Shown here: positions 61,675 through 63,451 of the stretch, in pieces
How the letters are laid out: the number at the start of each line of letters is the position of its first letter
Position numbering within the stretch: position 1 is the first letter of the stretch
DNA from: Lama guanicoe
Lineage: Eukaryota
Length of the DNA stretch: 64,000 nucleotides
Assembly: GCA_013239625.1 (NCBI GenBank)
Contig: MU053792.1
Span: 73,618 to 137,617, forward strand
Direction of reading: 5' to 3'
Made by a program: the position numbers and the translations under genes
Notes under the pieces: model-generated
What the model was told of the DNA's origin: nothing
The model's input: only the letters and a program-made list of their open reading frames with translations
The model's database searches: none

Positions 61675-62598
61675 TACCTAGCATGTGATCTAATGTAAAG
61701 AATTTTCCATATGCAGTTGAAAAAAATATCCATTCTGTTGCTTTTGGAAGGAATGTTCTATATATATCTCTGCTGAGTTCATTCATCTATTGTGTCCTAT
61801 AAGGCCAGTGTTTCTTATTGATTTTCTGTCTAGATGATCTGCCCATTGATATAAGTGGTGTGTTGAAATTCCCTACTATTACTGTTACTGACAATTGCTC
61901 CCATTATGTTTATTAATATTTGGTTTATGTCTTTAAGTGTTTCTATGTTGGGTGCATGTACAGTTACAAGTATTATATCTTCTTGAATTGATCCCTGATA
62001 TCATGTAATTTACTTCTTTATCTCTTGCAACAGTTTGTTGTAGTCTATTTTGTCTTGTGTAAGTACTGCTACCCCAGCTTTCTTTTAATTTCCACTTTCA
62101 TAGAATACCTTTTTTTATCTCCTTATTTTCAGACTGTGTGTGTTTTTATATCTGAAGTGAGTCTCTTGCAGACAACACATACATGGGTCTTGTTCTTGCA
62201 TCCATTCAACCACTCTACATCTTTTGATGGGAGCAGTTAGCCCATTTACATTTAAAGTAATTATTAATATCTATGGTCTTACTGCTATTTTGTCAATTGC
62301 TTTTGTGTCATTTTTGTAGGTGTTTTTGTTTCTTTCTTCTTTTGTTTACTTCTCTTGTGATTTGATGACTATCTTTTAGTGTTATGTTTGGATTTCTTTT
62401 TCTTTGTGTGTGTATATCTTTTGTAGATTTTTCATTTCTGGTTACCATGAGGTCTGTATTAACAATCCATATACATTACCAATTGTTTCAATTTCTGATC
62501 TCTTAATTTCAAATGCATTTGCTACTTTTGTCTTTTAACTTTCCTACTAGCTTGGAGAGTATATGGATGAGTTTCTCCCTTTCCTATATATGCCTTTA
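61675..62598 (-). mobile_element. Antisense L1 fragment (ORF2 endonuclease plus inter-ORF region) abutting the EPV
   Basis: 'ttgattttctgtctagatgatctgcccattg..gtgttgaaattccctactatt', 'tttatatctgaagtgagtctcttgcagac', ending 'tatatatgccttta'. Confidence 0.88.
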
Positions 62599-63451
62599 TG
62601 GGCACTAATTTCCTTGAGGTGCCAACCTACCAAAAAATAGGCAAAGACAAATATGGGGAGAAATATCTAAATTATGAGCCTGAAGTTTTTCAGAGAATGC
62701 AGGAGTTTGCAAATGCAGCTGCTATATCTGAGAATGCCAAAATCTCGATGAGAGCAAAACCACAGCTGAATTCTTTGTGGAAGGGGTGAGAAACTATTTG
62801 CACCCAGGAACCTCATGGACAGAGCAACTTTAATGATGTGACCATGAAAGTCACCAAGGACGCTTCCCTGATTATGTCATGGAGGGAGGGAACAGACAGC
62901 AGTCCTTTGATTATATGGACCAAGGAAAATGGGACCAACTCAACAGATTTCAACTCTGCCACCACAGCAGGCTGTGTCATGACCCTGCAGATCTCACCAA
63001 CCATCATCCTGGAAAGCCAAGGCCTCCTGTTTGCAGGAATTCAACCTGGCAATGTACAGATGGATCCAGATATATATTTGTGGGGCCCTACATGGGCTCA
63101 AGTTCCTCATGTAGATGGAGTATTCCACCCTACTCCTAACATGGGGGGTTTGGGTGTCATCGACCCCCCTCCAATGATTCTAATAAAAAATACTGCCGTG
63201 CCAGCCGAGCCCTGGAAAGCATTTACAGCAGGCCCTAGTCTTTCATTAATCAGTACTCCACAGGACAGGTTACAGGAGAGATGGAGTGGGAGATTGAAGG
63301 AAAAAACAGTAAGCACTGGAATCCAGAGATTCAATACACCGGTAATTACGGTCCTAACAAGGACACAATGAATTTTACCGTAGATGGGAACGGGAAATAT
63401 AATGGGAGTCCCCAGTTTGCTAGAACCAGGTTTCTGTCAAAACACTTGTGA
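62598..63451 (+). pseudogene. cap: Endogenous dependoparvovirus (AAV-like) capsid gene fragment, roughly AAV2 VP1 residues ~452-735, three frameshifts
   Basis: ORF 62838-63371 contains [59 protein letters not shown] (AAV2: [59 protein letters not shown]). After a frameshift at ~63238 the frame from 63239 reads [70 protein letters not shown], stop at 63449-63451 (AAV2: [37 protein letters not shown]...[25 protein letters not shown]). Upstream segments YQKIGKDKYGEKYLNYEPEVFQRMQEF and EFFVEGVRNYLHPG are colinear with the AAV GH loop. Confidence 0.97.

Follow-up and report, generated by a model that had tools for sequence, protein, structure and literature searches.

A dependoparvovirus capsid fossil in the genome of Lama guanicoe, very likely the catalogued locus EPV-dependo.23-Camelidae

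Endogenous parvoviral elements (EPVs) of dependoparvovirus origin are catalogued in Campbell et al. (2022, PLoS Biol, PMC9707805), where Table S4 lists exactly one camelid locus, EPV-dependo.23-Camelidae. Its row covers five species at the rank of family, assigns the locus to the clade Lemuria with a minimum age of 11.7 million years (My), names PNRC2 as the upstream and RIDA as the downstream gene, cites no earlier report, leaves the columns for intact open reading frames (ORFs) and expression empty, and holds no coordinates, extent or gene content (PMC9707805). That paper links the Lemuria clade to avian viruses (PMC9707805). Full-text literature searches returned no paper describing the locus, and no camelid term occurs in the main texts of PMC7474932, PMC9707805, PMC12358894, PMC12719739 and PMC11089739; the catalogue row seems to be the only print record in the literature searched. 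In the current study, we characterized a fossil of the dependoparvovirus capsid protein (VP) in a 64,000-nt stretch of DNA from Lama guanicoe (GenBank assembly GCA_013239625.1, contig MU053792.1, positions 73,618 to 137,617 of the forward strand), hereafter the window, to which all positions refer unless stated otherwise. We find a true fossil of the germ line that has no function and is already in the catalogue, very likely as EPV-dependo.23-Camelidae.

The locus shares with EPV-dependo.23-Camelidae the host family, its status as a single locus, the lack of an intact ORF, the PNRC2 and RIDA flanks and the presence in several species; no difference between the two was shown, and the anatomy given here is added detail rather than a new locus. 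EPV-dependo.1-Whippomorpha (Hildebrandt et al. 2020, PMC7474932) is likewise a dependoparvovirus fossil of a cetartiodactyl host, was dated by orthology and also stands in the Lemuria clade of Table S4 of PMC9707805. In contrast to the camelid fossil, it occupies another locus, an intron of PAX5, and is near full-length according to the abstract of its description (PMC7474932), with open VP and NS frames of 357 and 314 amino acids in some whales (PMC9707805), against ~283 VP codons in the camelid; the two elements are compared here by description. Relative to the VP1/VP3 capsid proteins of adeno-associated virus (AAV; e.g., PDB 1lp3, AAV-2), the C-terminal blocks are colinear to the last residue, whereas the first ~60% of VP1 is lacking, 7 of 33 invariant positions are changed and the loops can barely be aligned.

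The first-pass annotation, made from the letters of the window, had proposed an AAV-like capsid fossil and a check against the Parvo_coat profile, and our searches bore the proposal out. The stretch 62790-63238 matched Pfam Parvo_coat (PF00740) with 44.3 bits against a cut-off of 27 (E 1.2e-11, profile positions 391-481 of 525), and 63239-63448 continued the match at profile positions 486-520 with 22.5 bits (E 5e-5), which taken alone lies below the cut-off of 27. Using phmmer against PDB chains, the frame 3 and frame 2 pieces reached E values of 7.9e-23 and 6.8e-19, respectively; the virus-named chains among the top matches were AAV capsids (1lp3, 9zcw, 3j1q), the others being titled just "Capsid protein (VP1)", and the frame 2 piece aligned to residues 669-736 of AAV VP1 chains 736 residues long, so that the natural C-terminus is reached. 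By tblastn, residues 428-673 of a 717-amino-acid VP1 (P0002) aligned to 62586-63308 in one frame, and by BLASTP the upstream 63 codons matched another VP (P0051) at 14 of 28 positions (E 3e-6). The alignment of the fossil is colinear with 121 VP proteins through the native stop, with a surface-loop region that is barely alignable. The three peptides quoted in the annotation are present letter for letter in frames 3 and 2. Its by-eye identities to AAV2 of about 33/50 and 27/37 were close to the mark: we counted 32/48 and 27/37 in the core blocks, and 39/66 and 41/71 in wider BLASTP blocks, against the VP of a 4,679-nt IMG/VR dependoparvovirus genome (L012) that we take, from its length, to be AAV2. 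Protein database searches returned few relatives (2 matches in one, 11 in another), and the named matches were Dependoparvovirus sp., AAV6 and feline dependoparvovirus. Since the virus-named PDB chains, the named database matches and the position inside the dependoparvovirus tree all agree, the nearest relatives are, by homology, dependoparvovirus capsids and not those of other parvovirus genera.

By the same homology, positions ~62602 to 63451 of the plus strand encode, in broken form, the last ~283 codons of a VP of dependoparvovirus origin. Frame 3 is open at 62571-62786 and at 62790-63368 (193 codons), with a TGA at 62787-62789 between them, and frame 2 is open at 63239-63448, where it is ended by the TGA at 63449-63451. 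The last 44 codons of the frame 62790-63368 are out of register with VP: homology in frame 3 stops at ...FTAGP, and homology in frame 2 begins at SFINQY. The parts of the locus and its flanks are as follows.

61650..62601, minus strand: left flank, an old fragment of a long interspersed element 1 (L1) with the end of ORF1 and the start of the ORF2 endonuclease; its 5' end adjoins the fossil
62602..62786, plus strand: VP segment 1, frame 3, ~61 codons, corresponding to about residues 428-490 of P0002 (tblastn, BLASTP)
62787..62789, plus strand: in-frame premature stop TGA, also kept by the diverged copies of X16 and X18
62790..63236, plus strand: VP segment 2, frame 3, 149 codons, a variable loop followed by a conserved block (Pfam, PDB)
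63237..63238, plus strand: -1 frameshift from frame 3 to frame 2, the break lying somewhere in 63234-63240
63239..63448, plus strand: VP segment 3, frame 2, 70 codons, up to the last VP residue (PDB, Pfam)
63449..63451, plus strand: native VP stop TGA; the alignment reaches the final residue of AAV VP1 chains
63452..63499, plus strand: post-stop stretch of 48 nt that separates the end of VP from the host repeat, without A-tail or hairpin
63500..63698, no strand assigned: right flank, a low-copy host repeat of unknown class with one paralogue at 76% identity

The viral insert thus spans about 62602-63499, or 898 bp, made up of ~283 VP codons, the stop and the 48 nt that follow, which may be viral 3' untranslated sequence. 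Its start is placed at ~62602 because L1 homology reaches ~62601, and for this reason the start at 62598 in the first-pass annotation moves slightly to the right while the fossil itself is confirmed. The left edge of VP segment 1 is uncertain between 62602 and 62628, as homology to VP by BLASTP runs from ~62628.

Germline integration was also part of the earlier proposal, which spoke of a single-stranded DNA virus in a camelid-type genome, and it has stood up well. The locus is a chromosomal, single-copy, germline-integrated endogenous viral element, as follows from its place in a contig of 1,418,158 bp, from junctions bridged in an independent sequencing run and from diverged copies with the same L1 junction. 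Fifteen public runs from five coded organisms and six studies contain a fraction of 0.87 or more of the words sampled from 62450-63750; no RNA run occurs among these listed holders, X16-X20 having only been guessed to be RNA, and they may be DNA. Contigs of run X7 (organism C) cover 62524-63095, 63084-63669 and 63641-64000 with 0 differences and join the fossil to both flanks. Diverged copies were found in three other runs: X16 with 9/333 differences over 62491-62823 and 4/154 over 63440-63593; X18 with 9/341 (62491-62831), 8/151 and 4/113 differences and one gap; and X19 with 7/156, 14/307 and 4/128 differences. Their divergence is ~2.7-4.2% overall, or 2.6-5.3% per contig, and these contigs cover the fossil in part, with the frameshift site outside their cover. 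Those of X16 and X18 span the L1/virus junction, and none of the 9 differences in each falls on the TGA at 62787-62789. Because both are kept in X16 and X18, the junction and the stop codon are older than the split of the lineages. Read depth reached hundreds to thousands over the L1 and fell to single copy from the bin starting at 62585.

The match to the catalogue rests in part on what flanks this fossil. An intronless RIDA-like pseudogene lies on the same contig at C1686:66763-67113 (L006:3146-3496), ~69 kb from the fossil and ~6.9 kb left of the window start; it matches positions 2-120 of the 121 of the Ribonuc_L-PSP profile (E 1.5e-23) and carries two TGA codons. On the other side, a PNRC2-derived fragment occurs on the minus strand at C1686:200810-201050 (L039), ~64 kb to the right, and represents the end of the coding sequence and the 3' untranslated region; at the DNA level it is 85% identical, over 242 bp, to the PNRC2 gene of this genome. 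The fossil, at 136.2-137.1 kb of C1686, therefore lies between the two. The parent genes PNRC2 and RIDA lie on different human chromosomes. The PNRC2 protein of the genome is letter-identical to XP_006196832.1 of Vicugna pacos, and 1 of 139 residues differs in the Camelus protein; this single marker supports a camelid host, as the earlier annotation had it, probably on the South American side. Since retro-copies of both genes named in the catalogue flank the sole VP locus of a camelid genome, the fossil is very likely EPV-dependo.23-Camelidae, which settles in this sense a matter that the annotation had left open. Four more RIDA-like matches occur in the genome, of which one, on C4240, has a frame of 195 codons without interruption. 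Elsewhere, at L007:333-761 (C3175), an intact PNRC-like open frame of 142 codons is 44% identical to PNRC2 and had no exact match in the protein collection.

Other viral parts were sought in the genome and around the locus. The genome-wide family scans score the best candidates only, and the 14 control genomes are prokaryotic, so that they offer no positive control for these models. In the 2.05-Gb genome, Parvo_coat was found at the fossil locus only (2 of 6 scored candidates, both there, with 43.6 and 27.9 bits), and Parvo_NS1 (PF01057), Rep_N (PF08724) and the phospholipase A2 (PLA2) domain of VP1 (PF08398) gave no match among the best candidates scored. With two Rep proteins and four VP proteins as tblastn queries, Rep and N-terminal VP were absent from 277 kb of the contig, where the sole match was at contig positions 136203-137065, corresponding to 62586-63448 of the window. 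Downstream of the fossil there was no inverted repeat and no excess of fold stability (z = -1.06), and a blastn comparison of the 3' side with the post-cap ends of 19 dependoparvovirus genomes gave at best 24 bits, against a mean of 20.8 and a maximum of 32.6 bits for shuffled sequences. A suspected resemblance of 63660-63700 to an AAV2 terminal sequence was therefore dropped. With no Rep/NS1, PLA2 domain or terminal hairpins recognized, the locus is, as far as homology goes, not a complete dependoparvovirus genome or provirus, and the missing first ~60% of VP1 includes the PLA2 domain and the first jelly-roll strands.

Both flanks consist of host DNA. The first-pass annotation had named L1 and long terminal repeat (LTR) flanks; the L1 is present, and the LTR was not confirmed, the right flank being the low-copy repeat of unknown class. 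The L1 fragment has DNA matches of 70-74% to other copies in the contig, extending to 62601, and its sole match from 36 frames to Pfam Exo_endo_phos (profile 1-45, E 0.0027) lies below the cut-off; the edge at 61650 was judged by eye from ORF strings, and the L1 label on 61650-62601 rests in part on known ORF2 motifs. Two old L1 pieces stand left of the fossil, tail to head on opposite strands (59647-61645, plus; 61650-62601, minus); a simple twin-priming inversion would not produce this order, and no remainder of the L1 on the minus strand turned up further to the left. On the right, the paralogue of 63500-63698 lies at C4172:12462236-12462431 (L009:4937-5132). Because there is no parvoviral coding within 10 kb of this paralogue, the DNA from 63500 on is assigned to the host repeat. 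At both loci an L1 3' end lies upstream of the repeat in the same relative orientation, at 365 bp in the paralogue and at 1.86 kb here, a pairing that could be coincidental or go back to an old duplication or to L1 3' transduction. Close to the fossil on its right side, at 63709-63794, lies an old interspersed repeat of 85 bp with at least eight other genomic matches of 76-83% identity.

The best identity to any full-length VP was 41% (112/275, P0051), and most were 37-39%. Closer proteins from public assemblies were short: P0004 (204 amino acids) was identical at 73/136 positions (54%) and P0003 (189 amino acids) at 88/186 (47%); P0003 has the one-residue insertion of the fossil near the C-terminus, and P0004 ends in non-VP sequence. 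A scan of metagenomes for relatives of P0003 gave two matches only, at 30% identity. The short VP C-terminal proteins P0003, P0029-P0031 and P0004 are nearer to the fossil than any full-length capsid, and one of them is on a 20-kb contig, which is too long for a parvovirus, and may be a fossil in another host. An IQ-TREE phylogeny of VP was built from 56 rows and 287 columns, the long-branch rows P0010 and P0007 having been dropped after a quick tree. The terminal branch of the fossil is 2.07 substitutions per site long, and it has no supported sister; the fossil falls in an unstarred group of 21 rows (92/85) with duck AAV, the P0002 group, P0003 and P0004, and the porcine and rat AAV group, and the primate, bat and AAV4/bovine clades are separate from it. 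A clade of the fossil with P0003 and P0004 is absent from the tree but not rejected by the approximately unbiased (AU) test (p = 0.44), and the log-likelihood drops by 20.2 units when the fossil is joined to the clade of primate AAVs (AU p = 0.0504). The earlier suggestion of a lineage distant from primate AAVs is, given this last value, only weakly supported by the position outside their clade. Since the AU tests reject neither alternative, the placement in the VP tree is tentative; it is compatible with the Lemuria clade of the catalogue.

Decay of the fossil bears on both its function and its age. The 13 differences listed for the VP part comprise 10 nonsynonymous and 3 synonymous changes, and the X18 lineage has a new stop at 63099 and a 1-nt deletion at 63356. 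Against the 121 VP proteins, the fossil departs not only from invariant columns but also from 11 of the 45 columns whose conservation is 97% or higher. From the 10:3 ratio, the new stop and the deletion, the changes since the lineage split are read as neutral and free of coding constraint; the lost invariant positions likewise point to decay, and the element is read as having no function now. From the changed conserved columns, the distance accrued after the loss of constraint would be ~0.1 substitutions per site, with a wide error, and one stop and one frameshift per ~283 codons suggest a lower estimate of ~0.03. Divergence between the two ortholog groups is ~0.03-0.04, i.e., ~0.015-0.02 per branch. 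Because both estimates exceed the per-branch value, integration probably predates the split of the ortholog groups, by a factor of ~1.5 to 5 in what is a soft dating. We consider only tentatively that the source was a dependoparvovirus lineage without a sampled living member and that its entry into the camelid stem is several-fold older than the 11.7-My minimum. Sister fossils from that lineage, sitting in the genomes of other hosts, are what P0003 and P0004 could then represent.

Taken together, these observations are best explained, at a probability of roughly 0.88, by a relic of a dependoparvovirus that is extinct or unsampled: a piece of ~0.9 kb from the 3' end of its cap gene, which was fixed in the ancestral camelid germ line, decayed neutrally without function and is most likely the catalogued dependo.23 locus. 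End joining in a germ-line cell would have sealed a sub-genomic piece of viral DNA into a broken chromosome, and the remainder of the virus would either never have entered or have been deleted. The event would fall on the camelid stem, probably tens of millions of years back, and the piece would then have drifted to fixation. Several points weigh against this explanation. No viral terminal repeat is visible that would show the mode of integration; the organisms behind the runs are coded, and their standing as other camelid species follows from divergence, not from names; sharing of the frameshift with the diverged copies falls outside the cover of their contigs; the PNRC Pfam model and a PNRC2 protein search found nothing on the contig, leaving the DNA match as the sign of PNRC2; and the identity with dependo.23 is based on host, flank names and single-copy status, not on coordinates or sequence from the catalogue. 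The principal competitor is an L1-made retrocopy, in which a 5'-truncated cDNA of cap mRNA was inserted by target-primed reverse transcription. It would account for a layout that is 3'-complete and 5'-truncated and ends 48 nt past the VP stop, for the L1 that adjoins the fossil, and for an imperfect 12-nt direct repeat at both edges (62588-62599 and 63498-63509; 10/12 identical, with an exact core of 7 nt). However, 63480-63499 shows no A-rich tail, the opposite orientation of the L1 speaks against a template-switch chimera, and the 12-nt repeat is one of 16 short direct-repeat families in 1 kb and has its copies in two separate host repeats; a target-site duplication, microhomology or chance could account for it. 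We regard a retrocopy as unlikely.

Even less probable, in our view, is a co-opted host gene, whether the 193-codon frame 62790-63368 or a fusion transcript, that would yield a capsid-derived host protein. Just two breaks in ~283 codons speak for it, and other EPVs are expressed according to Table 4 of PMC9707805. Against this, the register of VP is lost in the last 44 codons of that frame, nonsynonymous changes outnumber synonymous ones by 10 to 3, one lineage has the new stop and the 1-nt deletion, 7 of 33 invariant VP positions are gone, and the intact-ORF and expression columns of the catalogue row are empty (PMC9707805). End joining of viral DNA, followed by neutral decay, also fares far better than an artefact in which exogenous AAV or vector DNA was assembled into a host scaffold. 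AAV vectors are common laboratory contaminants, but no full-length VP is more than 41% identical to the fossil (112/275), its reading frame contains a stop and a frameshift, its junctions are bridged with 0 differences in an independent run and also in diverged copies, and the stretch is present in 15 runs from six studies. Contamination or misassembly is thus left with next to no likelihood.

The present analysis adds to the published record the extent of the element (~898 bp), its two frame breaks and its junctions with the L1 and the host repeat, together with evidence for a stop codon that predates a lineage split of ~3-4% and a decay that appears neutral; general knowledge of EPVs is unchanged by it. 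If P0003 and P0004 were truly sister fossils, they would provide a second calibration point for the "Lemuria" jump from birds to mammals. Dependoparvovirus fossils calibrate the age and the host jumps of the AAV group and thereby bear on AAV biology, and the camelid locus already serves as such a calibration in the published catalogue.

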